From Escherichia coli (lineage in GTDB: Bacteria; Pseudomonadota; Gammaproteobacteria; Enterobacterales; Enterobacteriaceae): a stretch of DNA of 64,000 nt. The position numbers and the translations under genes are program-made. The DNA lies in NCBI RefSeq assembly GCF_022846255.1, contig NZ_AP025682.1. The stretch is one strand, 5' to 3'. The notes below the pieces were generated by a model. That model was not told the DNA's origin and searched no databases. It saw only the letters and a program-made list of their open reading frames with translations. Shown here piece by piece: positions 1,478-63,411 of the stretch (position 1 is the stretch's first letter; each line of letters begins with the position of its first letter).

Positions 1478-1596
1478 GCTTCGTTCATGCCGGATGCCAT
1501 GTGAACGCCTTACCAGGTCTACAAAATTTTTAAAGTTCAATATATTAAATGGGTTATGTAGACCTGATAAGCGTAGCGCATCAGGGTGCTTTGCGT
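1478..1596. repeat. REP/BIME-type extragenic palindromic repeats
   Basis: Inverted REP-like units (gccggatgc...gtgaacgcc...ggtctacaaa / tgtagacctgataagcg...gcatcagg) in the yjiR-rpnD intergenic gap. Confidence 0.6.
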
Positions 1597-1613
1597 TTGT
1601 CATCAGTCTCTGA

Positions 1614-2570
1614 TTAGTACTCGATCCATGGATCGCGCTTGCTTTCAGGCAAGGGCTGATCTAATGCCTGCATTTGCTCTGCCGAAAGTCCGGTATATCG
1701 TTGTATCCATTCAGGATCCGCCCCATTCTGCAACAACAATCGGAGGAGGCTCTTTTCCCCTTCTTCTTTCCCTTCTTTCCTCCCCCTCTCCCTTCCCAAT
1801 AGCCATCCATCATTATGAATTCGCTCTGCAATCGTCATTATTCGCTCCCTGTGTTGTGGCATTCGACTGGTTAGTTCGCTGATAAACTCTTTAAAACTCG
1901 CTTCATCGCCAGCCAGTAAAATGTAATTTAACAGCGCAGTTATCTGGCTGTCATTAGCACACTCTGTAACCAGTAATACTACCAGTTGGTCAATAAGCCC
2001 CATCAGATCGCGCTGGCGAATATGCTTTTGGATCAACTCCAACAGGGCGACTCTGCGATGCTGCACAATCTCGTCGTCTGGCACGACAGTGATATCCACC
2101 AGCGGGAACGCGGCGGTATAAAGCTTCCGTGCGGTAGTTGGGTCGGCAAATTCGTCCAGCCAGCACAAAGACCAGGGATAAGGGCTACGGCTACCGTGAT
2201 AAAACAGCATCGGGATGACCAGCGGTAGCTGCCGGCGTTTATCATGTTCGATATGGCGCTGCATCACCGCCATGGAATATCGCATCAGACGAAAGGCCAT
2301 ATGAATATCCTCACGGCTCTGATGTTCAATCACTACATAAATATAGCCATCGCCTTCACGGGTCTTTACCGACCACAGAATATCGGAATGTAGCGCCCGC
2401 AATTTTTCATCGACAAAGCTGGCGGATTCCAGTTTTAAGCTATCGAGATCGCACAGTTCACGTAAATCTTTGGGTAAGTGGATCTCCATAAAATCCCGCG
2501 CGGTGTCAGAGTGTGTGAGAAAGGATTTAAATAATGCGTCATGCGGCGTGCTGGTCGTAAAGTTTGTCAT
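1614..2570 (-). CDS. rpnD: Rpn-family recombination-promoting nuclease (PD-(D/E)xK, YhgA-like), intact 318 aa
   Basis: Uninterrupted 318-codon ORF with a stop at 1614-1616 on the reverse strand. Product has the Rpn/YhgA-like N-terminal nuclease region. Position between yjiR and mdtM corresponds to K-12 yjiP/yjiQ. Confidence 0.8.
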
Positions 2571-3036
2571 GGCGATCCGTCACCTGTAGATAAGATGGCC
2601 CAACTTTAGCGACTAACAAAGCCATTCACACCTGGCTATTTCCTATTCCCCGAGGCGGTTTCCAGGCTATTTTTATTCTTCTGCAAACGATACATTTTTC
2701 CGGAAACAGGCTCGCATTTTACATTTCCTGTACCCGGCAGATATTCCCCTTTCCACCGCACTCTTTTGATTAACCGCAAATTTTAATTACACTTAAGGTG
2801 TATATTTTCTATGCAACCCATCAATTCAAGAGGTGTAATGTGCTGATGACTATTTGTAATCGTTATACATTCTGACCCGAAGTCAGAAGGTATTTCTCTG
2901 TCTGTGTGTTCACAGGCAGTGTGGTTGATTACATGAAATTCAGTACATTTGTCCTTCTCGCCTGCCTTTCGTCATTACCGACGGTATTGAATTTCGTTTT
3001 CCCCATTGGGGTTCTCCGGACAAGGAGTAGTTTGTT

Positions 3037-4269
3037 ATGCCACGTTTTTTTGCCCGCCATGCCGCCACGCTGTTTTTCCCGATGGCGTTGATTTTGTATG
3101 ACTTTGCTGCGTATCTGTCGACGGACCTGATCCAGCCAGGGATCATTAATGTGGTCCGTGATTTTAATGCCGATGTCAGTCTGGCCCCGGCTGCCGTCAG
3201 TCTCTATCTCGCTGGAGGCATGGCATTGCAGTGGCTGCTGGGGCCGCTTTCCGACAGGATTGGCCGCAGGCCGGTGCTGATTAACGGGGCGTTAATTTTT
3301 ACCCTTGCCTGCGCCGCGACAATGTTCACCACGTCAATGACACAATTTCTTATCGCGCGTGCAATTCAGGGCACCAGTATCTGTTTTATTGCCACCGTTG
3401 GTTATGTCACGGTGCAGGAGGCGTTCGGACAGACAAAAGGGATCAAGTTGATGGCGATTATCACCTCCATCGTACTGATTGCGCCGATTATCGGCCCGCT
3501 TTCCGGCGCAGCTCTGATGCACTTTATGCACTGGAAAGTCCTTTTTGCCATCATTGCGGTTATGGGTTTTATCTCATTTGTCGGCTTGCTGCTGGCGATG
3601 CCAGAGACGGTGAAGCGCGGCGCGGTTCCGTTTAGCGCCAAAAGCGTCTTGCGCGATTTTCGTAATGTCTTTTGCAATCGGCTGTTCCTCTTTGGCGCAG
3701 CAACCATCTCTTTAAGCTATATCCCGATGATGAGCTGGGTGGCTGTCTCGCCGGTGATCCTTATCGATGCAGGCGGCTTAACAACTTCGCAGTTCGCCTG
3801 GACACAGGTTCCGGTGTTCGGCGCGGTGATTGTCGCGAATGCCATCGTGGCGCGTTTCGTTAAAGATCCGACCGAACCGCGGTTTATCTGGCGTGCCGTA
3901 CCCCTTCAACTGGTCGGCCTCTCGCTGTTGATTATCGGCAATCTGCTGTCGCCGCACGTCTGGCTGTGGTCGGTGCTGGGCACCAGTCTGTATGCTTTCG
4001 GGATTGGTTTGATTTTCCCGACCTTATTCCGCTTTACGCTGTTTTCCAATAACTTACCGAAAGGGACCGTCTCCGCATCGCTAAATATGGTGATCCTGAT
4101 GGTGATGTCTGTCTCGGTCGAAATCGGCCGCTGGCTGTGGTTTAACGGCGGTCGCTTGCCGTTTCATCTGTTAGCCGTTTTAGCGGGCGTTATCGTCGTT
4201 TTCACCCTGGCGGGATTGCTCAATCGCGTGCGCCAGCATCAGGCAGCCGAGCTAGTGGAGGAGCAGTGA
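3037..4269 (+). CDS. mdtM: MFS multidrug efflux transporter
   Basis: 410-aa polytopic membrane protein with MFS features; synteny with yjiN. Confidence 0.9.
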
Positions 4270-4309
4270 TTTTTGCGCGATCCTGCCGTCAGGCTCTATT
4301 CTTAACGTT

Positions 4310-5590
4310 ATGAATAAACTCATTGAACTCAGACGCGCCAAAATGTTGGCGCTCTCTTTACTGCTTATCGCCGCTGCTACCTTTGTCGTTACGCTGTTTT
4401 TGCCGCCCAATTTTTGGGTGAGCGGCGTGAAGGCGATTGCTGAAGCGGCGATGGTCGGCGCGCTGGCGGACTGGTTTGCGGTGGTGGCGCTGTTTCGCCG
4501 CGTGCCGATTCCGATCATTTCTCGTCATACGGCGATTATCCCGCGTAATAAAGACCGGATTGGCGAAAATCTCGGTCAGTTCGTGCAGGAAAAATTTCTC
4601 GATACCCAATCGCTGGTGGCATTGATTCGACGTCACGAACCGGCGTTGTTGATTGGCAACTGGTTTAGTCAGCCGGAAAACGCCTGCCGCGTTGGTCAGC
4701 ATCTGTTGCAGATCATGAGCGGTTTTCTTGAACTGACCGATGATGCGCGTATTCAGCGCCTGCTTAAGCGCGCAGTCCATCGGGCGATTGATAAGGTCGA
4801 TCTCTCCGGCACCAGTGCGTTGATGCTGGAGAGTATGACCAAAAACGATCGTCATCAGGTGCTGCTCGATACGCTGATCGCACAGTTGATCGCCCTTCTC
4901 CAGCGCGATAAATCGCGCAAGTTTATTGCCCAGCAGATTGTTCGCTGGCTGGAGAGCGAGCATCCGCTAAAAGCCAAAATTTTGCCCACTGAATGGCTGG
5001 GCGAACATAGCGCGGAGTTAGTTTCTGACGCGGTGAATTCTTTGCTTGATGATATTAGTCGCGATCGTGCGCATCAGATCCGCCATGCGTTTGATCGCGC
5101 CACCTTTGCCCTGATCGACAAGCTGAAAAACGATCCTGAAATGGCAGCGCGAGCCGATGCCGTAAAAAGCTATCTGAAAGAAGATGAAGCTTTTAACCGC
5201 TATCTCAGTGAATTGTGGGGGGATTTACGGGAATGGCTGAAAGCGGATATCAACAGTGAAGATTCTCGTGTGAAAGAACGTATCGCACGAGCGGGTCAAT
5301 GGTTTGGCGAAACGTTAATTGCCGATGATGCCTTGCGGGCGTCGTTAAATGGTCATCTGGAACAAGCCGCGCACCGCGTTGCGCCTGAGTTTTCCGCATT
5401 CCTGACGCGCCACATCAGCGATACGGTAAAAAGCTGGGATGCGCAGGATATGTCGCGGCAAATCGAGTTAAATATCGGCAAAGATCTGCAGTTTATCCGT
5501 GTCAACGGTACGCTGGTTGGCGGTTGTATTGGGCTAATTTTGTATTTGCTTTCGCAGCTCCCGGCCTTGTTCCCCCTCGGCAATTTTTAG
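4310..5590 (+). CDS. yjiN: DUF445-family inner membrane protein
   Basis: 426-aa ORF with N-terminal TM segments; conserved position downstream of mdtM. Confidence 0.85.
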
Positions 5591-5705
5591 AAATCCATGA
5601 AAAACTAAGTGGCTAACCGCGAGAGAGATCAAATAAACCACACTAAAAGAATGGTAATAATGTGGCCTCTTTTCATTATCTCCCGTGGTACGGGGAAGGA
5701 AAATC

Positions 5706-6857
5706 ATGTCACTTGTCACCGATCTACCCGCCATTTTCGATCAGTTCTCTGAAGCTCGCCAGAAAGGCTTTCTCACCGTCATGGATCTCAAGGAGCGCGG
5801 CATTCCGCTGGTTGGCACTTACTGCACCTTTATGCCGCAAGAGATCCCGATGGCAGCCGGTGCGGTTGTGGTTTCGCTCTGTTCCACCTCTGATGAAACC
5901 ATTGAAGAAGCCGAGAAAGATCTGCCGCGCAACCTCTGCCCGCTGATTAAAAGCAGCTACGGCTTTGGCAAAACCGATAAATGCCCCTACTTCTACTTTT
6001 CGGATCTGGTGGTCGGTGAAACCACCTGCGACGGCAAAAAGAAAATGTATGAATACATGGCGGAGTTTAAGCCTGTTCATGTGATGCAGCTGCCGAACAG
6101 CGTTAAGGACGATGCCTCGCGTGCATTGTGGAAAGCCGAGATGCTGCGCTTGCAAAAAACGGTAGAAGAACGTTTTGGGCACGAGATTAGCGAAGATGCT
6201 CTGCGCGATGCCATTGTGCTGAAAAACCGCGAACGTCGCGCACTGGCCAACTTTTATCATTTGGGGCAGTTAAATCCTCCAGCGCTTAGCGGCAGCGACA
6301 TTCTGAAAGTGGTCTACGGCGCAACCTTCCGGTTCGATAAAGAGGCGTTGGTTGACGAACTGGATGCAATGACCGCCCGCGTTCGTCAGCAGTGGGAAGA
6401 AGGCCAGCGACTGGACCCGCGTCCACGCATTTTAATCACCGGCTGCCCAATTGGCGGCGCAGCAGAGAAAGTGGTGCGCGCGATTGAAGAGAATGGCGGC
6501 TGGGTTGTCGGTTATGAAAACTGCACCGGGGCGAAAGCGACCGAGCAATGCGTGGCAGAAACGGGCGATGTCTACGACGCGCTGGCGGATAAATATCTGG
6601 CGATTGGCTGCTCCTGTGTTTCGCCGAACGATCAGCGCCTGCAAATGCTCAGCCAGATGGTTGAAGAATATCAGGTCGATGGCGTAGTTGATGTGATTTT
6701 GCAGGCGTGCCATACCTACGCGGTGGAATCGCTGGCGATTAAACGTCATGTGCGTCAGCAGCACAACATTCCTTATATCGCTATTGAAACAGACTACTCC
6801 ACCTCAGATGTCGGGCAGCTCAGCACCCGTGTCGCGGCCTTTATTGAGATGCTGTAA
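5706..6857 (+). CDS. yjiM: 2-hydroxyacyl-CoA dehydratase component D-like protein
   Basis: ATG at 5706 preceded by ggaagga; HgdB/D-component-like sequence; paired with the activator-like yjiL immediately downstream. Confidence 0.85.
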   Translation: MSLVTDLPAIFDQFSEARQKGFLTVMDLKERGIPLVGTYCTFMPQEIPMAAGAVVVSLCSTSDETIEEAEKDLPRNLCPLIKSSYGFGKTDKCPYFYFSDLVVGETTCDGKKKMYEYMAEFKPVHVMQLPNSVKDDASRALWKAEMLRLQKTVEERFGHEISEDALRDAIVLKNRERRALANFYHLGQLNPPALSGSDILKVVYGATFRFDKEALVDELDAMTARVRQQWEEGQRLDPRPRILITGCPIGGAAEKVVRAIEENGGWVVGYENCTGAKATEQCVAETGDVYDALADKYLAIGCSCVSPNDQRLQMLSQMVEEYQVDGVVDVILQACHTYAVESLAIKRHVRQQHNIPYIAIETDYSTSDVGQLSTRVAAFIEML

Positions 6858-6860
6858 GGA

Positions 6861-8813
<1,953 letters not shown>

Positions 8814-8880
8814 CAGGCTGGCATGTTTCACCTTTTTGTTATTAACTTGTTAACAGCAAAAATGACAAACAAGGTTAAAC

Positions 8881-10059
8881 ATGCCTTCGCCCTCGCATCC
8901 CGTAGAACGCTTTTCTTTCAGCACCGCGCTTTTCGGGATGCTGGTTCTGACCTTAGGTATGGGTTTAGGCCGCTTCCTTTATACACCTATGTTGCCCGTC
9001 ATGATGGCGGAAGGATCGTTCTCATTTAGCCAGCTCTCGTGGATTGCCAGCGGCAACTATGCGGGGTATCTGGCTGGCAGTCTGCTATTTTCTTTTGGCG
9101 CATTTCACCAGCCATCGCGCCTGCGCCCATTTCTGTTGGCTTCTGCCCTGGCGAGCGGGTTGTTGATCCTCGCAATGGCATGGTTGCCGCCATTTATTCT
9201 GGTGTTATTGATTCGCGTCCTGGCGGGTGTCGCCAGCGCCGGAATGCTGATTTTTGGTTCGACGCTGATTATGCAGCACACGCGCCATCCTTTTGTGCTG
9301 GCAGCTTTGTTTTCTGGCGTTGGCATTGGCATCGCACTGGGCAATGAATATGTTCTGGCAGGCCTGCATTTTGACCTCTCCTCGCAAACGTTATGGCAAG
9401 GCGCCGGGGCGCTTTCTGGCATGATGCTGATTGCACTTACGCTTTTAATGCCCTCGAAAAAACACGCCATCACACCAATGCCATTGGCAAAAACGGAGCA
9501 ACAGATAATGAGCTGGTGGTTACTGGCTATTCTGTACGGCCTGGCGGGATTTGGTTATATCATCGTCGCAACTTACCTGCCGCTCATGGCGAAAGATGCA
9601 GGCTCACCATTGTTAACCGCCCATCTCTGGACGTTAGTCGGCTTATCAATTGTGCCTGGTTGCTTTGGCTGGCTATGGGCAGCAAAACGTTGGGGGGCTT
9701 TGCCCTGCCTGACGGCGAATTTGCTGGTGCAGGCTATTAGTGTGTTGCTTACTCTCGCCAGCGACTCGCCTCTCTTGCTTATCATCAGCAGTCTTGGTTT
9801 TGGCGGTACCTTTATGGGCACGACATCTCTGGTGATGACTATCGCCCGCCAACTGAGCGTACCGGGAAATCTCAATCTTTTAGGCTTTGTGACGCTCATT
9901 TACGGCATTGGGCAAATTCTTGGCCCGGCGCTGACCAGTATGCTTGGCAATGGAACATCGGCGCTTGCCTGCGCCACTCTCTGCGGCGCGGCGGCGTTGT
10001 TTATTGCTGCGCTTATCAGCACAGCGCAATTATTTAAGCTGCAAGTGGTCACTTCATGA
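8881..10059 (+). CDS. yjiJ: MFS-type membrane protein (DUF1228 family)
   Basis: 392-aa polytopic membrane protein in the conserved position. Confidence 0.85.
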
Positions 10060-15682: not shown

Positions 15683-17053
15683 TTAAAAGACTTTTACGCC
15701 ATTTTGCTGTAAGCGTTCCTGTACCGTCTGAATATCTACCTGTGAAACGGTAGTGTTATTTTTAATGGCAATAGCAGCGGCAGTCCCTGCACCTTCTCCA
15801 GTGACAATACAACACCCCATATTACGGATTGTCGCGTAGGCGAAATTATCTGCATCGATTGCCCGTCCGCAAACCAACAGGTTTTCAACTTGCTGCGGAA
15901 TCATTACGCCATAAGGGATTTGAAAATAGTTCGCTTCAAGAGGTAATTTAAGATGACCATTTCCATCTATAAACTCAGGGAATACCCCTATTGAATCCGC
16001 ATGACGTCCCTCATTACAAATATCATTTTCAGTTAATTGTGTTCGCCCGAGAATATGTCTTGATTCCCTTGTTCCCACCGTCATACCGAAGTTTTTTAAT
16101 TGTGCCTGTTCAAATCCTGGCTGGAATTGACGCAACGCTTCTATCGCCTGCATGGCTTGTTTGCGGCCCTCTATTTCGGCACGCGTCAGGTCAAAAACAT
16201 CTGTACAATCAACGGCAGGGATGCTGACAACGTTCAAGTAATTCGCATCACCATACTCGGTGACCGTACTCCAGGAACCGCCTAATGTCACATCTTCAGG
16301 AATAATTCCTGCCGCCTTTCCTTTCGCAAAGACTTTACCCAGATAAGGGCTAAACATATCGCGACAAGATTCATGAACATCATAAGACCAGTTTTTATTT
16401 TCTTCATCCGCCCCCCAGTCTCCATATTTAGGTTCCGTGCTCTTAATATTTTGCATGAACGCGTTTTTATTTATATTTGCGCAACTAAAAACGGTTGTCA
16501 TACACATTAGCTCTTCGCGTTCACGCTTAATAAATGGTGCTCCGGCAAACCATGCAATATCAGCATCGCCAGTACAGTCAATAATGACATTTGCCAAAAT
16601 AGCCTGACGACCAGATTTACTCTCTGTTATTACGCCGAGTAAATTATTGCCCTGCTTGATAACATCAACGGCGGTAATGTGTAGTACGCGGCGCACACCT
16701 GCCTGTTCAAGCATTGCATCCGCAACCAGTTTGAAACGCTCGGCGTTAATAGCCTGACTATTCGATTGCGGCTCAGGGCTGGACGCCCCCATTGATTTTG
16801 CCGTTTCTTCTATTTCGCGTGCCAGTCCACCTGACTCTACCGTATTTTCATGACGCCACCAGGCAATTGACTCGACGCCAGCCGTTGTCATCATTCCGCC
16901 AAAACAACCGAAACGTTCAATCAGCATAGTAGCTGCGCCTTCACGAGCGGCACTCATTGCTGCGGCAATACCCGATGGACCACCACCAACAACTAACACT
17001 TCCGTGGTTGCCAGCACAGGTATATTACGAGCGGGTTCCAGATAAAATTCCAT
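15683..17053 (-). CDS. FAD-dependent oxidoreductase, paralogue A
   Basis: N-terminal dinucleotide-binding motif VLVVGGGPSGIAAA; ATG at 17051-17053 with a ggaga SD; paralogous to the ORF at 26207..27601 (shared motifs GGxLTxxGVESxAWxRH, CTGDADIA, FQIPYG). Confidence 0.8.
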   Translation of the reverse strand: MEFYLEPARNIPVLATTEVLVVGGGPSGIAAAMSAAREGAATMLIERFGCFGGMMTTAGVESIAWWRHENTVESGGLAREIEETAKSMGASSPEPQSNSQAINAERFKLVADAMLEQAGVRRVLHITAVDVIKQGNNLLGVITESKSGRQAILANVIIDCTGDADIAWFAGAPFIKREREELMCMTTVFSCANINKNAFMQNIKSTEPKYGDWGADEENKNWSYDVHESCRDMFSPYLGKVFAKGKAAGIIPEDVTLGGSWSTVTEYGDANYLNVVSIPAVDCTDVFDLTRAEIEGRKQAMQAIEALRQFQPGFEQAQLKNFGMTVGTRESRHILGRTQLTENDICNEGRHADSIGVFPEFIDGNGHLKLPLEANYFQIPYGVMIPQQVENLLVCGRAIDADNFAYATIRNMGCCIVTGEGAGTAAAIAIKNNTTVSQVDIQTVQERLQQNGVKVF

Positions 17054-54958: not shown

Positions 54959-57073
54959 TCAATCAGCCACTAATAGCGGACTAGGGATACCAGATGATGA
55001 AACAAACAGCCCTTTTACGGCACGGGTTGCAGCCACATGCAGTAACGCGCGCTCATTAAATAATGCATCACGCTGTTCAACGGGATCATCGGATGCTAAT
55101 GCTTTTATTTCCGGCACAACGCCTTCGTTAATCCCCACCAGGAACACATACTGGAACTCAAGCCCTTTAATACGGTGCATCGTTGCAACTCGCACGCCTG
55201 GGCGTTCATCGCTGTCACCGCTATCATTGCCTAAATTAAATGTCTCAATTCCGGCGTCATTGAGTGCTGATGCGTAGCGGTCGCAAGCATGTTTAGTACG
55301 CGCAGTAATGCAGATATCCTGAGAACGAACCTGACTCGCCAGCAATGCCTGAATTTGCTTGACGAGTGTTGCAGCCTCTTCTTTGAAATCTGCCGCATGC
55401 GTAATCATGGGCTTTTCCCCGTGCAGTAATGACAAATAATCATTACTGGTATCCGCTTCGCCATCGAGGTTATCAACCTTCACACCAGTTAACAGCCCAA
55501 CAGCAAATTGACGCGTCTCTTCTGTGGTCCGATAGTTAATCTTCAATTTTTTACTGCGACGACCACGGACGTTAATACCACACTGACCAAGAACGACCTT
55601 ATTGCGATAAATACGCTGATGCCCATCCCCGACAATAAACAGATCGTTGGGCGACTCGGGAACCAGGCTGCGAATAAGAGTAAATGCCGGGGCACCGATA
55701 TCTTGAGCTTCATCGACGACAATACTGCTATAAGGTAGTTGGACCTGCTTTTCTTTAAACAGAACAATAGCCTCATGCATGGCATCGCCCATTTCGCGCA
55801 GTTTGGCACGCGCCATTTGTGCTCTGAATTCTTCGAAAACTGGCCAGATTTTCGCCCGTTGAATACGGGATAACGCTGTACCACGTCCAACCCGGCTGAC
55901 TTTGAGGTATTCCTCCCGGGTGTAAACCGCATTTGGCTGGACAACGCGTTGCCACTCTTCAGCATAGAAATTGTCAGGTAGCCCCAGTTCGGCAGGTGCC
56001 TGCTGCAAGGCATAGTTCCAGCATTTACGTCGCCCTTCATCGCTGTCGTATACCACGCGGAAATCATAACCGTGGCGTTTTAGTTGGTCGCTCATCCAGG
56101 CATCAATGTTAACGACGTCAATACGCGCCATCTCTTCTCGCGTACACAACCGCTGGAGATTAGCGCGAATATCTGCCGCCAGGTTACGCGTAAAGGTCGT
56201 GAAAAGTACCTTCTTACCGGGTTTATCTGCCAGACGCTGAGATAACCACCGCGCACGGTGCATTGCAACAACCGTTTTCCCTGTACCTGCACCGCCCAGT
56301 ACTCGTACCGGACCATTAGCGGGCGACTCCACCAGTTTTCGCTGGCTCGGATGCAGAAATACACGCCATTTTTCTAAAGGCGCATTAAGCATCTGCAACA
56401 GCTCCTGTTCATTTTCAACGACATGGAAGCGACGTTTACTTCGTTCAATCGCCTCCATAAAGTCGTTGGTATCAACAGGCTCGTCACGATGATCGTTAAA
56501 CTCTTCCAGCACTTCCTGGTAATCCAGCCCTTCTGCCAGCCAATGCAGGGGTTCCCAGGCTTCTGCTGGCATTATGCTTTCAAGTTGATTAAGCCCGGCT
56601 TCATCGGTAAGCGCCATCACCTGATCAATAAAGACAGGCGGCACACCCAGGGCCAGAATCTGTTCCGCGCTGTAAGCTGCGAAGAGTTTCGGTTTATCTA
56701 GCACCGTTTCCGCCGCCGGTTTGATATAGCTAATATCAATAACCTGAATTGCGCCGGTAACCGGGTGAATTGAACAATCATGCCGCCGCGCCCAGTCGTA
56801 TGCTTCGTCGTGTTTATCCACCCACATCAGCATATACAGGGCACCCTGTTCAGGTTTCAGAACAATGCCGCGATAAGTTTGATCGATTCGCACCGAATGG
56901 ACATTTTTACTGCGCGCATCGTGGATCTTTTCATAGTTAAGTCCATTACTGGTCGGGTCCTGACGGAATTTGGAGATGAATTCCTGCACCTTTTTTTGCT
57001 GTGCTTTTGGGATCCGCGCGAATGCGCCCAGAAAACCATCAGAAAGTGCCACCTTGGGCGTTTGCACCGTCAT
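54959..57073 (-). CDS. UvrD/Rep-family (SF1) helicase, 704 aa, with an uncharacterised ~230-aa N-terminal domain
   Basis: Walker A GGAGTGKT (aa 260-267), motif II IVVDEAQDIG, motif III-like VGDGHQRIYR, C-terminal TMHRIKGLEFQYVFLVG. Its start ATG overlaps the stop of the 2113-aa gene by 4 nt (57070-57073). Confidence 0.8.
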   Translation of the reverse strand: MTVQTPKVALSDGFLGAFARIPKAQQKKVQEFISKFRQDPTSNGLNYEKIHDARSKNVHSVRIDQTYRGIVLKPEQGALYMLMWVDKHDEAYDWARRHDCSIHPVTGAIQVIDISYIKPAAETVLDKPKLFAAYSAEQILALGVPPVFIDQVMALTDEAGLNQLESIMPAEAWEPLHWLAEGLDYQEVLEEFNDHRDEPVDTNDFMEAIERSKRRFHVVENEQELLQMLNAPLEKWRVFLHPSQRKLVESPANGPVRVLGGAGTGKTVVAMHRARWLSQRLADKPGKKVLFTTFTRNLAADIRANLQRLCTREEMARIDVVNIDAWMSDQLKRHGYDFRVVYDSDEGRRKCWNYALQQAPAELGLPDNFYAEEWQRVVQPNAVYTREEYLKVSRVGRGTALSRIQRAKIWPVFEEFRAQMARAKLREMGDAMHEAIVLFKEKQVQLPYSSIVVDEAQDIGAPAFTLIRSLVPESPNDLFIVGDGHQRIYRNKVVLGQCGINVRGRRSKKLKINYRTTEETRQFAVGLLTGVKVDNLDGEADTSNDYLSLLHGEKPMITHAADFKEEAATLVKQIQALLASQVRSQDICITARTKHACDRYASALNDAGIETFNLGNDSGDSDERPGVRVATMHRIKGLEFQYVFLVGINEGVVPEIKALASDDPVEQRDALFNERALLHVAATRAVKGLFVSSSGIPSPLLVAD

Positions 57074-60000
57074 TTGTCACCTCCGGACAGATGTTGCAAT
57101 GTATTTTCGTCAATTGGCCCGAATGCTACGTGCCAACCCCTGGTTGTGAATAATGGAATAAATTCTTGATTATCAATAATCAATGCCCATTTTTGTGATG
57201 GCCAGGCGAGATCGGCTTCCGCAATAATTTCCCCCTCATCATTTTGCAATTCGTAGCCGAGAGTCGGCGCAGAGAGAGAATGAGACTGAAGCAACGCGAT
57301 CTCTTCAGCGCTTAATAAGCCAAACTCAATAATCTCAGCCCAACTCTCATCAGTCTCTGGTACTGCCTCTGGCGTTGCCGAAACTTTAGTGTCAACGCTT
57401 TCCTGCGGTAAATGCACGGCTTTACGGCTGGTAAAGGTTATATCCGGCAGGAACTGTAACAGGTTTACCAGTCGCCAGAAGCCATTGAGTCCCGCTTCAT
57501 AACCGTCATCCTGCGTATAGCGATCGTCAAAACAGATATGCAAACGCAGCCAGCTGCGCATTTGTGCGACACTGGTCGTCGGTTTAATGGCTTGTTGTGG
57601 CAACACCGAAGCCAGCTCAATAAATTGCTGCGATGAGTTACAGCTATCGAGTAAACCACCAAAGACAAACGGTTCGTCTGGCAAAAGCTCTGCTAGCCGC
57701 CAGGCTGGCGCGTTTTCCTGCATTTCATAGGCATACTTTTGTTTCGTTCCCGCGTCCTGTGACTTCTTCACATCCAACCACACCCAGGCATGTGCAGCAG
57801 CCATTTTCTGCCATAACTGCGTTCTTCCTCCCGGATCGGCGAGATAATCCAGCAGCAGTGCAAAACTGTTGCGTTCCCGGAACGACGCTTCAAGGGCCGC
57901 AAAGTTGGTATCGTGAAACAGGTTATAAAACTTAGGCTGTTTCATATCCGGGTTATGCCCAAGCCCCAGGACATCCTGAACATGTTTAAGCCCAGGCTCT
58001 TTGAGATCGGCCCACGTGACTGTCCACACCCAGAAATTATCGCTATCCCGAATCGCCTGGCGTTTTTGCACATCCTCTGCGACGCTATTTTTGTGAAACG
58101 CAAAGCCATCAAGGAAAATAGCTACCGGTTTAATGGCATCAGACTGCATAAGCGGATATAGCACGTAATCCGGGCGACAAGGGATCCCCACCGCCTCTTT
58201 AGCGCCTAAATCCACCTGAGCTTTAAGATGCCAGCTCATCATCGGTTCGCTGCGGGTGTTAATAATCCACCCAGCGCCCTGATGCGCGTAACTGCGACTG
58301 ACAATCAGGTTTTTATTTTCTTGCAGGCAGCTAATAAACCGTTTTTCCAGCTCACTGCCCATCATGGCTTCGAGGGAAATGTTTTTGATGGAATCAATTA
58401 CCCGTATCGAATCTCTTGCCTGCAAAATTTTCGCCAGCAAGAGACGCGCCTGATCGCGGGAGACATACTTCATGCGCCCACGGTCACGGTAAGCGTAAAC
58501 GCAACGATAACAACCATCTTTATGCGTATCATGGTTGCAACTGCATTCCACTATCGCCTGATAGGCCAGTTCAAGTAATTTCAGCAAATTGTCGGGAGTG
58601 CGCATCAGCTCTTTAAGAGAACCAGTTCCCCCCGGGACGGTATCGTAAATCACCAGATACTGCCGCCAGGATTCGCCTTCATTTTCCGGCTCGCGGTACA
58701 CAACGCCTTTCAGGTGATCGACATTCCCCTTGAAGTAATGTTTAAGACCTAGCTGGATCGCCGCCCCAAGAGAAGCCTCCACGACACGGTCATTACTGTA
58801 ACTGCTTACCGGGAGCAGAATACGCAACGCTTCTGACTCCAGCTGGCGATAGAGATAGAGATAATCTTCGAACTTCGCCTTTTCGGGTTCCGTGCGATAT
58901 TTGCAGCTCAAATCATGACGGGGTTCATGATCGCGAGGACGCTGTACCATGCCGCACCCGAGGCAAACTTTAAACCCGGTTCGCTTCTTCGCTTCTCCGG
59001 CAATCATCAACTCATTGGCATCATCCGCCATTTTGCCGAAGTTGATATCCCGCAGGGTGACTTTGCTTAAAAATTCAAAACCAAACGGAACTTCGCCTTC
59101 CTCAATCGCGTATGCCGCCGATACATCTTCTTTTTCGAAACTAACCAATAGCTGACGCTGGAAGAAAGCAGGTTCACGGCTGTCGCTCTCGTCGCTGATC
59201 TGGCTATCACGTGCGCTGGCGCGGGCATACACCTGGCGAAGTTTCAGCAGCGTGGTTTTTTGTCCGGCGTCGGCCCACCCCGGTGTGCCACATTTCGGGC
59301 AATATTTATGCTGGTCGCCCGTCTGGTCGATATTTTCGCTGTAGTTACAGTGGCTACAGATACGCCAGTTCTCCGGCTCAGAGACCTTCAGGTCTATCTG
59401 CTCAATTTCAACTTTATGCCCACCGGCATAGAAATTATTCAGCGGAGCCAGCTCAGCCAGCGCCGTTGATGCCGGGCGTTCATATTCGAAAGTGGTGTTT
59501 TGATATTCACGTGCTTCCCCGCCTTCTTTACGCCGCCAGAGCACAGAACGTAACGTAATACCGGCTTCCGGGAAGGCGTAGTTAGGCAGCAGACCTTCAT
59601 CCGTGAGGAAATTCAGCGTCTGCTTATTGTTGATTTGATTGACCAGCGCCATCAGCGCCTGCCGTTCTGAAGTTAACTCGCGCATATCGCTGTCAAAGTT
59701 TTGATCGCGCGGCGCGTTCTCCAGCTTATCGATACTGCGCTTGAGTTTATCGATGCGTGAACGCAGAGATTTGCGATCTTCCACCAGCAGTTTTAACGCC
59801 TCTTCGATACGCTGCACCAGAGAGCGTTGTCCTGGCGCGCCCTGAAGATAAGACAACAACTGTTGGCGAGTTTCTGCGGCAAGATCGGGGAAGATCGCCG
59901 TAAATTGTGCAGCAATCTCCGCATGATGCTGTTCGATATATCTCAGTAAGTTATACGGAAAACCCGATTTACGCCCGAACTCCAGCTCATCCAGCATCTG

Positions 60001-63000
60001 TTTGACGTTTTTACAGATAGCGGATTCTGGTACACCGGTTTTCACCCAGTTATCCATACAAAAAGCTGCCAGCTGGCGTTCGAGAATAGCCGTTGCATTG
60101 AGGAAGACGCCAGGAGCCTGCACCTGGCCCTGCATCATCTCCAGTGGTTCTTCAAAGAAAAACTGATCGTGCGGGTTCCCTTCTGCCACGGTAATGTTTA
60201 ACGCGTTACCATCTTTACGACCGGCGCGACCAATACGCTGCAAGTAGTTGGCCTGAGCAGGTGGGACAGAACAGAGTAAAACGGTGGAAAGATCCCCAAC
60301 GTCGATACCCATCTCCAGCGTCGGTGTTGCCGACAACAGGTTGATATTCCACGGTTGGTTGCCGCGGTAGAACGATTTTTCGGTGGCTTCGCGATCTTCA
60401 CGGCTAAGCAGCCCCGTGTGTTCTGCGCCCTGCACGCGCGCGATGTCCATGTTCTCCCAACGCCAGGTCGCCGTATTGTCGACTTCCTGGTAACGACCTT
60501 CACAACGTAAAGAGAGACAAGGCGCATTACGCCACTGCCACCCTTGATCGGCCGGAGCCCGGACAACCTCACGGCAACATGAGCAATTAAGCTGAACGAC
60601 GTCACGGCTCACCACCAGCGCCGAAGGCACCAGTCCCCAGGCTTCACGCCCTTTGGTGTCAAAATCTTTTACTACTCCGGCTATTTTCAACGCCGTAAAC
60701 AGGCGTCGTAACACCGTTTCCGCAACGCTACTGATAAACAGATTATTGCCGTTACTCAGCGTGCGATTGATCCAATGCTGATACCAACTGGGGTTAGACT
60801 TCGCGCCAATCAGGCGATGGAAACCATTAATTTTTTCAAACGACGCGTAAGCCGGTTTACGCGTTTTCGGACCGATAGAAGGCATATAGCGCGAGGTACG
60901 CTCTTTTTGCGTCATCATAAAGGTCGTGCCATCACGGCGATAACTTTCGAACGCCGGATGCATAACGGCCCCGGCCTGGCGTTGATACCAGATAACCCCC
61001 AGCGCCAGGTGCGCTACCTGCTCGACGCTCACACCGGACATCTCATCACCCAGCTCTTCACAAAGCTGTTGATGCAGGGCGGTAATTGCCGGATTAAAGC
61101 GATCTTTATCCACTCCAGCAACGGCATAACCGGTGGCTTCCAGCGTACGTCCGATACGCGCGCGCAGGGTGAATTCGCTGTACACCTCCCAGTCGAGGCG
61201 CAGGGAAACCAGCTCCGGCAGATCGGAGTTCTCCGCCAGTTTGCCTTCATTTTTCAGTGTCTGATAATCATTCAGCCACTGCATATTTGGTGCGATGAAG
61301 TTCGCTGCAAAATGAGCATCGTCCGGTGAACGTTCACGCGTTTGTTGGCAAACACGCGCCGCGAACGCATCCAGCGGTAATGTCTCTTTTTCGCCAAGAA
61401 CACTGGCGATTTGCCCACGAATCATCAGCGGCCAGGTTCGGGCAGTAAAAAAGCTGGCACGATGCGCGGCGTCTTGTACCGAGTCAGAAAACGTAATCAG
61501 CTTTTTATGTTCGTTGAACTGGCTGCCATAAAGCTGGTGAATCATCACCGCCGACAGACTGGCAGCCCGTGACCCCAGAATCGAAATCCCCTGTTTGCTG
61601 TTGCAGTACGGGCATTCATTAGCAAACTCCAGCTCGTCCTTACGCTCTTTGAGCATATCTGGGATCAGTACCTGCAACAGCTCTGTATGACCACAATGTC
61701 CACACTGGACGCTGGACTGTCGGTTCAGTTTCAGGCAGGTAGGGCACAGTTTCTGGTGTGCGCCACTGACCGCTTTTTCGTTGTTATCCGGGAAAGCAAG
61801 GACGATGGAGCGCCCTTTTTCAAAGAACTGGCGATAAATGCCGTCGAGGTCTGTTTCCAGCTGAACGCTTTGCCCATGACGCAGGCTGGCCCAGCCGGTT
61901 GCGTGGCAGTCACGGCAGTGGATAACCGGCAAATAGTGTTCGCGATCTTCCACCGCCACATCATCGGCAAACACCAGTCTCGGTGTTTTCGCCACGCTGG
62001 CGACCAGACGACGCATCTCACGAAGCCACAACTGGGAGCGCAGTTGCACAAACGGCAGCACCGGGCGCGCTTTCTTCGCCTGGAGACGTTTTTGCCGATC
62101 GTGGTCCGTTTCCGGTACTTCGAGACGTGCCTGCGCGATCAGCGCCAGAATGCTTTGCAGCACGCGTCGGGCATGGTCGGCGCTTTCTGCCAGCATGACC
62201 TGGAGATTTTCCAGACACTCTCGTTCAGAGAGGATCCCGCCTTGCAGATCATGGAGTAAGACATGCATCACGCTGTGGCGGCGTAACAGTGACCCCAGCG
62301 CAATACGCTTTTCACGCCCGTCGTCGCTCTCCAGATCGTCCGGGAGTTGCAAGTCGCTGTCGGGGAACCACAAAGGGATTTGTCCGTTGAGATACGCCAC
62401 CGGGGTAGCGTAACTCTGCGGGTCCAGGGCCGAAGCGACCTCCGGCCCCGGATACTGACTGTACGCAATGGCGTAATCCTGCAAGTACTCCGCTGCCGTG
62501 TAGCGATCTTCGCGAATAACGGCGTCATCGGTAAACGGCTGGTCAAAGATTGTTTTTGCGTAATCGAGCAGTTGCCCCAGTTCGTCGCCGACGGTCGCTG
62601 ATGTCCCGACGCAGGCGAATCGTTGGTTATCTACACCTATGTGATGCTTCAGACGTCGCACCAGACAGGCCAGATCCGACCCTTGCGCGCCATCAAACGT
62701 ATGCAATTCATCCACGACCAGGTAACGCAATGAACCGGGCTGGTTGTAACGCCAGAGCGGCTGATCGCCAGGGCGCATCAGCAGGTAGTCGAGCATTTTG
62801 TAGTTGGTCAACAGGATGTCCGGCGGGCTTTCGCGCAGCGTGTGCTTACAGGTAATGACCTTTTCTGCCGACATTTTTTTGCTGGGTTCGATTTCGCTGT
62901 CGCCGACAAACAGGCCGACGGTCACCTTGCCATGCAGTTGTGGATCGCTGGCGATGGTTTTGGCGAAACGGCTGGCCTGATCGGTTGCCAGGGCGTTCAT

Positions 63001-63411
63001 CGGGTAGATGATAATCGCTTTAACCCCGGCTTGTGACGCGCCCGCGCAGTGGTTGAGCAGCGGGAACATAAAACATTCTGTTTTACCGGAGCCGGTACCG
63101 GTAGCGACCAGTGTCGGCTGTGGCGCGTCGCTTCCCAGACGCTGAAATGCCCGGGCCTGATGCGCGTGCGGCGGGAACGGCAGCGTCAGATTAGGGAAGA
63201 AATTCAGCGGTAAGTCACTTTTACAAAACGGCAACTGGGCGGAAAGGTATGGTCCTTTCAGCAGCGTTTCAGGCTGGGCCAGAAATTGCTCCAGCATTGA
63301 GACATTATCGTTATTCTCGCCGTTAAACAGCGGGCTGTTTAGCGGGAACGCCGCCCGTAAAAAGGCGGCAACGCTGTCGGCGACCTGCCGACTGACAACG
63401 GATGGCAGCAT
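57070..63411 (-). CDS. Giant (2113 aa) DEAH-box SF2 helicase with Zn-ribbon insertions, DUF1998-like Cys cluster and a Vsr/DUF559-like endonuclease motif; DruE-like (Druantia) candidate
   Basis: Walker A VATGTGSGKT (nt 63079-63105), motif II VVDELH (62701-62718), motif VI QRIGRAGR (60217-60240), several CxxC pairs, CSCNHDTHKDGCYRC cluster (about 58501-58545), and VAIFLDGFAFHK...RQAIRD...VWTVTW (about 58090-58140). Confidence 0.8.
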   Translation of the reverse strand: MLPSVVSRQVADSVAAFLRAAFPLNSPLFNGENNDNVSMLEQFLAQPETLLKGPYLSAQLPFCKSDLPLNFFPNLTLPFPPHAHQARAFQRLGSDAPQPTLVATGTGSGKTECFMFPLLNHCAGASQAGVKAIIIYPMNALATDQASRFAKTIASDPQLHGKVTVGLFVGDSEIEPSKKMSAEKVITCKHTLRESPPDILLTNYKMLDYLLMRPGDQPLWRYNQPGSLRYLVVDELHTFDGAQGSDLACLVRRLKHHIGVDNQRFACVGTSATVGDELGQLLDYAKTIFDQPFTDDAVIREDRYTAAEYLQDYAIAYSQYPGPEVASALDPQSYATPVAYLNGQIPLWFPDSDLQLPDDLESDDGREKRIALGSLLRRHSVMHVLLHDLQGGILSERECLENLQVMLAESADHARRVLQSILALIAQARLEVPETDHDRQKRLQAKKARPVLPFVQLRSQLWLREMRRLVASVAKTPRLVFADDVAVEDREHYLPVIHCRDCHATGWASLRHGQSVQLETDLDGIYRQFFEKGRSIVLAFPDNNEKAVSGAHQKLCPTCLKLNRQSSVQCGHCGHTELLQVLIPDMLKERKDELEFANECPYCNSKQGISILGSRAASLSAVMIHQLYGSQFNEHKKLITFSDSVQDAAHRASFFTARTWPLMIRGQIASVLGEKETLPLDAFAARVCQQTRERSPDDAHFAANFIAPNMQWLNDYQTLKNEGKLAENSDLPELVSLRLDWEVYSEFTLRARIGRTLEATGYAVAGVDKDRFNPAITALHQQLCEELGDEMSGVSVEQVAHLALGVIWYQRQAGAVMHPAFESYRRDGTTFMMTQKERTSRYMPSIGPKTRKPAYASFEKINGFHRLIGAKSNPSWYQHWINRTLSNGNNLFISSVAETVLRRLFTALKIAGVVKDFDTKGREAWGLVPSALVVSRDVVQLNCSCCREVVRAPADQGWQWRNAPCLSLRCEGRYQEVDNTATWRWENMDIARVQGAEHTGLLSREDREATEKSFYRGNQPWNINLLSATPTLEMGIDVGDLSTVLLCSVPPAQANYLQRIGRAGRKDGNALNITVAEGNPHDQFFFEEPLEMMQGQVQAPGVFLNATAILERQLAAFCMDNWVKTGVPESAICKNVKQMLDELEFGRKSGFPYNLLRYIEQHHAEIAAQFTAIFPDLAAETRQQLLSYLQGAPGQRSLVQRIEEALKLLVEDRKSLRSRIDKLKRSIDKLENAPRDQNFDSDMRELTSERQALMALVNQINNKQTLNFLTDEGLLPNYAFPEAGITLRSVLWRRKEGGEAREYQNTTFEYERPASTALAELAPLNNFYAGGHKVEIEQIDLKVSEPENWRICSHCNYSENIDQTGDQHKYCPKCGTPGWADAGQKTTLLKLRQVYARASARDSQISDESDSREPAFFQRQLLVSFEKEDVSAAYAIEEGEVPFGFEFLSKVTLRDINFGKMADDANELMIAGEAKKRTGFKVCLGCGMVQRPRDHEPRHDLSCKYRTEPEKAKFEDYLYLYRQLESEALRILLPVSSYSNDRVVEASLGAAIQLGLKHYFKGNVDHLKGVVYREPENEGESWRQYLVIYDTVPGGTGSLKELMRTPDNLLKLLELAYQAIVECSCNHDTHKDGCYRCVYAYRDRGRMKYVSRDQARLLLAKILQARDSIRVIDSIKNISLEAMMGSELEKRFISCLQENKNLIVSRSYAHQGAGWIINTRSEPMMSWHLKAQVDLGAKEAVGIPCRPDYVLYPLMQSDAIKPVAIFLDGFAFHKNSVAEDVQKRQAIRDSDNFWVWTVTWADLKEPGLKHVQDVLGLGHNPDMKQPKFYNLFHDTNFAALEASFRERNSFALLLDYLADPGGRTQLWQKMAAAHAWVWLDVKKSQDAGTKQKYAYEMQENAPAWRLAELLPDEPFVFGGLLDSCNSSQQFIELASVLPQQAIKPTTSVAQMRSWLRLHICFDDRYTQDDGYEAGLNGFWRLVNLLQFLPDITFTSRKAVHLPQESVDTKVSATPEAVPETDESWAEIIEFGLLSAEEIALLQSHSLSAPTLGYELQNDEGEIIAEADLAWPSQKWALIIDNQEFIPLFTTRGWHVAFGPIDENTLQHLSGGDK

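Follow-up and report, generated by a model that had tools for sequence, protein, structure and literature searches.

An intact rpnD orthologue, most likely a gene-within-gene nuclease toxin–antitoxin pair, on an Escherichia coli chromosome

Results

The window analysed here is a stretch of 64,000 nucleotides of Escherichia coli DNA (NCBI RefSeq assembly GCF_022846255.1, contig NZ_AP025682.1). Near its beginning, rpnD is encoded on the minus strand with yjiR (34-1371, +), mdtM (3037-4269, +), yjiN and yjiM as its neighbours. Because the order of these four genes is that of K-12, the locus was identified as the K-12 rpnD locus. The list of open reading frames (ORFs) gave an ATG start and 0 internal stops for the gene and agreed with the Pfam match to PF04754, confirming the single unbroken 318-codon frame with a complete Rpn/YhgA-like region that an earlier note on this DNA had described (Table 1). 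PF04754 matched residues 8-210 over profile positions 1-202 of 203 (E 4.5e-86, 288 bits, cutoff 21), and the NCBIfam model of the Rpn family, TIGR01784, passed with a score of 170.8 against a cutoff of 52.1; as profile scores go, both matches are far beyond chance. The RpnA equivalog NF007361 matched the product strongly at a score below its threshold (374.4, cutoff 583), and the product is, judged by its sequence, a paralogue of RpnA and not RpnA itself. The gene has the position of the rpnD orthologue group, between yjiR and mdtM/yjiN, and shares 92.5% nucleotide identity with K-12 b4584 in a pairwise DNA alignment, as compared with 54% amino acid identity to RpnA. By these comparisons, it is essentially certain to be an intact rpnD orthologue. 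A frameshift or sequencing artefact, which had been named as an outcome that would overturn the intact reading, is countered by the identical 318-aa protein in public E. coli records (WP_137501638.1, BDH35005.1 and GDA50916.1). The 90%-identity cluster around window RpnD holds 3,918 sequences, and thousands of full-length members of the family, mainly of 310, 314, 318 and 322 aa, are present in the protein database. Between yjiR and rpnD, shortly after the stop codon of rpnD, there is a REP/BIME-like palindromic pair (window 1490-1600; arms 1509-1526 and 1554-1571).

Table 1 Features of rpnD in the window.
Feature	Position	Strand	Basis
rpnD coding sequence (RpnD_L), 318 codons and stop	1614..2570	-	ORF list, PF04754, TIGR01784, synteny, nucleotide identity
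YhgA-like / PD-(D/E)XK nuclease domain, residues 8-210	1941..2549	-	Pfam match; RpnA alignment
Catalytic core codons D63 ... E82-H-Q84	2319..2384	-	Alignment to same-numbered RpnA residues
Codon 104, CAG (Gln) in the window, TAG in K-12	2259-2261	-	Pairwise DNA alignment and translation
Candidate internal promoter (ATGACA, 18-nt spacer, TG-TAAATT), ~87 nt before the internal ATG	1925..1954	-	Consensus scan
Internal Shine-Dalgarno sequence (AGGGAG), 6 nt before the internal ATG	1845..1850	-	Read from the sequence
Predicted rpnD_S, residues M245-Y318 (74 aa), same frame as RpnD_L	1614..1838	-	Alignment of M245 with RpnA M244
4-aa repeat tract, 20 residues (codons 256-275), coding strand purine-rich	1746..1805	-	Protein alignments
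36 nt that K-12 lacks, three repeat units in 12 codons	1769..1804	-	Pairwise and multiple DNA alignments

Two further regions of the window were noted. Between hypT and iraD, at ~14265-34425, synteny to E. coli A20 identified a GimA-like island containing ibeT, ibeA, ibeR/dhaR, gcl-hyi-glxR-glxK, a BCCT transporter gene and dhaKL-ptsP; the ibeA ORF (15683-17053, 456 aa) is open in the window and frameshifted in A20. Beyond the nan genes, a minus-strand ORF of 2,113 aa (57070-63411) has DEAD-box helicase and MZB/DUF1998 domains, matches the PADLOC models DruE3 (4e-104) and DruE1 (9e-97), and contains a C-terminal HNH-like stretch that resembles ZorE2. It adjoins an ORF for a 704-aa UvrD/GajB-like helicase (54959-57073, -), and the region 54959-63411 looks like a Druantia-like defence locus. 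The PADLOC v2 scan returned no model matching RpnD, so that this library provides evidence neither for nor against a defence role of rpnD.

According to the earlier note, rpnD is a pseudogene in K-12. This is correct: b4584 is annotated as a pseudogene in NC_000913.3 (4568998-4569918), and the copy in the K-12 derivative DH1 carries the remark 'internal stop'. The names yjiP/yjiQ, by which the note referred to the K-12 locus, are presumably those of rpnD in older K-12 annotation. 'Formerly yjiP' is the only old name given by Kingston et al. (2017), who already stated that K-12 rpnD has a premature stop (Table S1, footnote c). The alignment of window rpnD with the K-12 gene that had been suggested for locating the lesion was performed and placed it at codon 104, where the K-12 TAG is the sole frame-breaking difference between the two genes; apart from this codon, the main differences are the 36 extra nucleotides of the window and a divergent C-terminal end. 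The K-12 lesion is an in-frame amber nonsense mutation, not a frameshift. The description of the K-12 gene as split was right in that the stop cuts it into a 103-codon N-terminal piece and a remainder, and wrong in that current RefSeq annotates one pseudogene feature and not two genes. TAG was found at codon 104 in MG1655, DH1 and T177A. The same 921-nt K-12 allele with CAG at this codon is present in APEC E16002 and FUJ80154 and is annotated as intact in both; a single C>T substitution thus accounts for the K-12 lesion.

The residues D11, D63, E82, Q84 and R94 of window RpnD occur at the same numbers as in RpnA, the PDDE motif (164-167) is also present, and the nuclease domain aligned with that of K-12 RpnA with just one gap, one residue long. 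Among 32 homologues with 56-96% identity, D11, D63, E82 and R94 were invariant and Q84 was at least 90% conserved. In published work on RpnA, the D63A, E82A and Q84K substitutions abolished all phenotypes, and mutants at D11, D63, E82, Q84, R94 and D165 had altered activity. Mg2+-dependent DNA endonuclease activity in vitro has been reported for RpnA only, and toxicity and SOS induction in vivo for the repaired K-12 RpnD. Expression of the repaired gene ('rpnDc') lowered the CFU of recipients by 94% and made RecA-independent recombination 4.7-fold more frequent, and its product was one of the two paralogs earliest to induce an SOS reporter (Kingston et al. 2017). An amber suppressor as the source of this active 'K-12 RpnD' was considered and ruled out, since the footnote to Table S1 of that study states that a repaired allele was used. 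The overexpression and recombination assays proposed in the earlier note had thus already been published for a close allele, with toxicity as one outcome, and the reported toxicity, recombination and SOS phenotypes back its suggestion that an intact rpnD may be functional. The sequence of window RpnD contains nothing that suggests an inactive enzyme.

The rpn genes have been described as genes within genes, in which RpnS, translated from an internal start that heads the variable C-terminal domain, blocks the toxic RpnL (Zhong et al. 2023). The internal ATG of window rpnD (M245, window 1836-1838) aligns with RpnA M244, the verified start of RpnA_S, and M245 is invariant in the 32 homologues despite the variable tail around it. 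Of the 12 E. coli rpnD alleles compared, 11 keep the Shine-Dalgarno sequence AGGGAG, and O157:H7 has AGAGAG. Window rpnD accordingly combines an in-frame internal start and a ribosome-binding site at the head of the C-terminal domain, the arrangement by which a gene-within-gene is recognized. Internal transcription start sites have been reported for all rpn genes (Zhong et al. 2023), and the position of the candidate promoter in the window (1954-1925) fits them; the consensus scan gave 3 sites against 3.1 expected, so the candidate itself is no better than chance. By immunoblot, all five K-12 RpnS proteins were seen (Zhong et al. 2023), and the S product of the K-12 rpnD pseudogene is therefore among the proteins detected. 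An AF2 model of the full protein, built from a 32-sequence alignment, was of low confidence (mean pLDDT 59.8, pTM 0.40) and placed helices at residues 247-261, 267-281, 286-293 and 297-302 of the tail. The S domain of the family is described as a three-helix bundle that carries the repeats in helix 1 (Zhong et al. 2023). In a PDB sequence search, the tail matched 7TH0, the crystal chain of RpnA_S, only marginally (E 0.028). Designed ankyrin repeats, the top PDB sequence matches to the tail motif at residues 266-288, were set aside as weak and probably a coincidence of short motifs.

The extra 36 nt of window rpnD lie after codon 255, and K-12 reads YIKG-EQRI at the matching position of the tail. 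Tandem Repeats Finder (TRF) detected a weak period-12 signal in the tract (1758-1784). In protein alignments, the classes of full-length proteins step by 4 aa, and the RpnD_S sizes across alleles are 62, 66, 70 and 74 aa, including intermediate repeat numbers. Hypervariable 4-aa repeats that begin 8-20 residues after the internal Met are a feature of the family (Zhong et al. 2023); those of the window begin 11-15 residues past M245, inside this range. Inhibition of L by S has been demonstrated for RpnA, RpnB and RpnC, and the S and L proteins of RpnC pair only at equal repeat numbers (Zhong et al. 2023).

Matches to the rpnD ORF were found in 4,242 of 5,426 complete E. coli genomes, at a median of 1 place per genome, and about 1,180 genomes had none. 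The annotation of 20 carriers, taken as every second row of an evenly spaced listing, was examined. In this sample, which is small, follows similarity ranking and is drawn from a collection where laboratory and O157 strains are over-represented, rpnD was intact in 14 carriers, with lengths of 921, 945 or 957 nt, and a pseudogene in six: two with the K-12 amber codon (DH1 and T177A), two with an O157:H7-type frameshift, one with a frameshift in 22AR0750 and one with IS1 in E. coli B. Even with these limits of the sample, an intact rpnD is clearly commoner in E. coli than an inactivated one.

The inactivated copies differed in what they left of the tail. The copy of 22AR0750 is frameshifted around codon 132. 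That of O157:H7 (ECP19-2498, L007 512-1469; also L025) has a tandem duplication of 25 nt at the internal start, between two ATAATGA microhomologies; the duplication truncates RpnD_L, yet recreates an ATG-led RpnD_S ORF of 66 aa. In E. coli B (B-LamR, L008 747-2266), IS1A interrupts rpnD at nt 766, precisely at the start of the repeat tract, and a DUF1998 pseudogene is found beyond the element; this was the only inactivation seen to remove the RpnD_S region entirely. All three independent point-type inactivations (K-12, 22AR0750 and O157:H7) left an ATG-led RpnD_S ORF. With these three point lesions, all outside S, sparing of RpnD_S was not significantly beyond chance (p ~0.45). It is conceivable, albeit quite improbable, that such lineages lost the toxin alone and kept an expressible RpnD_S, and that these orphan antitoxins may be selected, for instance as immunity to incoming rpnD alleles of the same repeat number, in which case the window allele, with three more repeats, would be an active defence toxin that escapes a K-12-type S.

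The surroundings of rpnD varied as well. The strains whose rpnD is closest to that of the window in its 5' part, 23AR0806, AHB6 and GN4738, lack mdtM and have rpnD directly next to yjiN; GmrSD/DUF262 restriction-type genes stand in place of yjiR in AHB6 and GN4738. The rpnD flanks are a variable junction of defence genes.

The gene itself also appeared to be composite. Over its first 480 nt, window rpnD showed 0-1 base differences to AHB6 and 23AR0806, and over its last 225 nt, 1 base difference to FXCREC145, whose 5' part had 9-13 differences per segment. AHB6 rpnD shares its nuclease module with the window gene, but its 62-aa tail resembles that of K-12, and the last 225 nt show 68 differences. 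By this distribution of differences, window rpnD is a recombinant mosaic, its nuclease and tail modules exchanged by recombination, which is in line with known behaviour of the family and not new in kind. Because of this mosaicism, no complete genome exceeds 98.3% identity over the whole of rpnD. Considering the best identities of 96.6-98.3% at rpnD and 98.2-99.0% in the flanks, an origin of the window outside E. coli was examined; it was rejected on the basis of the exact protein in E. coli records and the mosaicism. Among complete E. coli genomes, there is no close match to the window (best 98.2% over 3000-9000 and 99.0% over 22000-44000), and the lineage of the strain is therefore thinly sampled among complete RefSeq genomes.

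Discussion

An intact rpnD such as that of the window is ordinary, and such genes are already published and catalogued. For this locus, K-12 is the exception and not the reference state, the intact form being the commoner one. We consider it very probable that window rpnD is an intact chromosomal orthologue that constitutes a gene-within-gene toxin–antitoxin pair, comprising the nuclease RpnD_L and the internal RpnD_S, with a likely role in phage defence. RpnD_L (318 aa) would be a DNA endonuclease of the PD-(D/E)XK type, non-specific and dependent on Mg2+, whose free form damages the chromosome, and RpnD_S (74 aa) would be translated in the same frame from the internal Shine-Dalgarno sequence and the ATG at M245. 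As the variable C-terminal domain, RpnD_S is predicted to bind and inhibit RpnD_L via its first helix, which bears the 4-aa repeats. The number of repeats probably decides which S neutralises which L, and the 62-aa RpnD_S of K-12 would probably fail to neutralise window RpnD_L, which has three more. The pair would probably serve to defend the cell against phages by setting the nuclease free, and its promotion of RecA-independent recombination would be a side effect. From the published work on its relatives, we infer that the window allele may be expressed, active, self-neutralised and protective.

A different main role, RecA-independent acquisition of DNA at the adjoining immigration-control (restriction) island instead of phage defence, was weighed and is rather unlikely. 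The gene was first studied as a neighbour of the island, and its expression promoted RecA-independent replacements spanning the island (Kingston et al. 2017); GmrSD/DUF262 genes have replaced its flank in AHB6 and GN4738, where mdtM is missing, and IS1 and a DUF1998 gene occur there in E. coli B. However, the recombination effect required overexpression, and deletion of K-12 rpnA-D left the basal rate unchanged (Kingston et al. 2017). Acquisition of DNA at the island is, moreover, compatible with a toxin–antitoxin and defence mechanism.

The same deletion result speaks for an intact frame that is silent, being poorly transcribed or held off by excess RpnD_S, and of no phenotypic consequence. 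In K-12, the long forms are scarce, RpnB_L, RpnC_L and RpnE_L alone being detectable, and the S forms are abundant (Zhong et al. 2023); in addition, many lineages have lost or inactivated rpnD without obvious cost, as judged by the roughly 1,180 genomes among 5,426 that have no copy and by the pseudogenes in 6 of the 20 sampled carriers. Against silence, most carriers keep an intact frame and invariant catalytic residues, and the tail is still diversifying, which argues for selection on rpnD function; we regard a silent gene as an unlikely explanation.

That rpnD is the self-moving transposase of an unrecognised insertion sequence, as in the older 'transposase_31 / ISNCY' annotation, is scarcely credible: in spite of the Pfam family name, the match to NF007418 'ISNCY family transposase' (E 7e-117) and the patchy presence among E. 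coli genomes, this reading was rejected because the NF007418 score is below its cutoff (389.9 against 583), because no inverted or direct repeats bracket rpnD, the REP-like pair at 1509-1571 being the only notable palindrome, and because the gene occupies the same chromosomal site in almost all carriers, in agreement with the report that rpn genes have no terminal repeats, target duplications or defined ends (Zhong et al. 2023). We recommend annotating the gene as an intact rpnD (RpnD_L/RpnD_S) system and not as a transposase. With three more repeats than K-12 and a mosaic of nuclease and tail modules, the window gene is a natural allele with which to address chromosomal RpnD phage defence and repeat-number specificity; beyond annotation, its importance is little.

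Among the known systems close to window RpnD, K-12 RpnD shares the yjiR-rpnD-mdtM locus, the catalytic residues and the internal Shine-Dalgarno sequence and ATG. It differs in the TAG at codon 104, in the absence of the 36 nt that encode three 4-aa repeats and in its C-terminal end (...ERERYSWLKS), and its RpnD_S has 62 aa as against 74 aa in the window. RpnA (YhgA), the biochemically characterised exemplar, is 54% identical to window RpnD over the whole length and has a homologous internal Met, but is a paralogue at another locus and is without the 12-residue repeat block. Like the window protein, RpnC_L/RpnC_S has 4-aa repeats close to the start of S that vary in number and are rich in charged residues and glycine; the unit is KGIE in RpnC and R/K-E-x-G in window RpnD. 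Protection against phages has been shown for plasmid RpnP2 only: RpnP2_LS of ECOR13, which belongs to the same family and has the same gene-within-gene layout, is plasmid-borne, unlike the chromosomal gene of the window, and protects against T-even phages.
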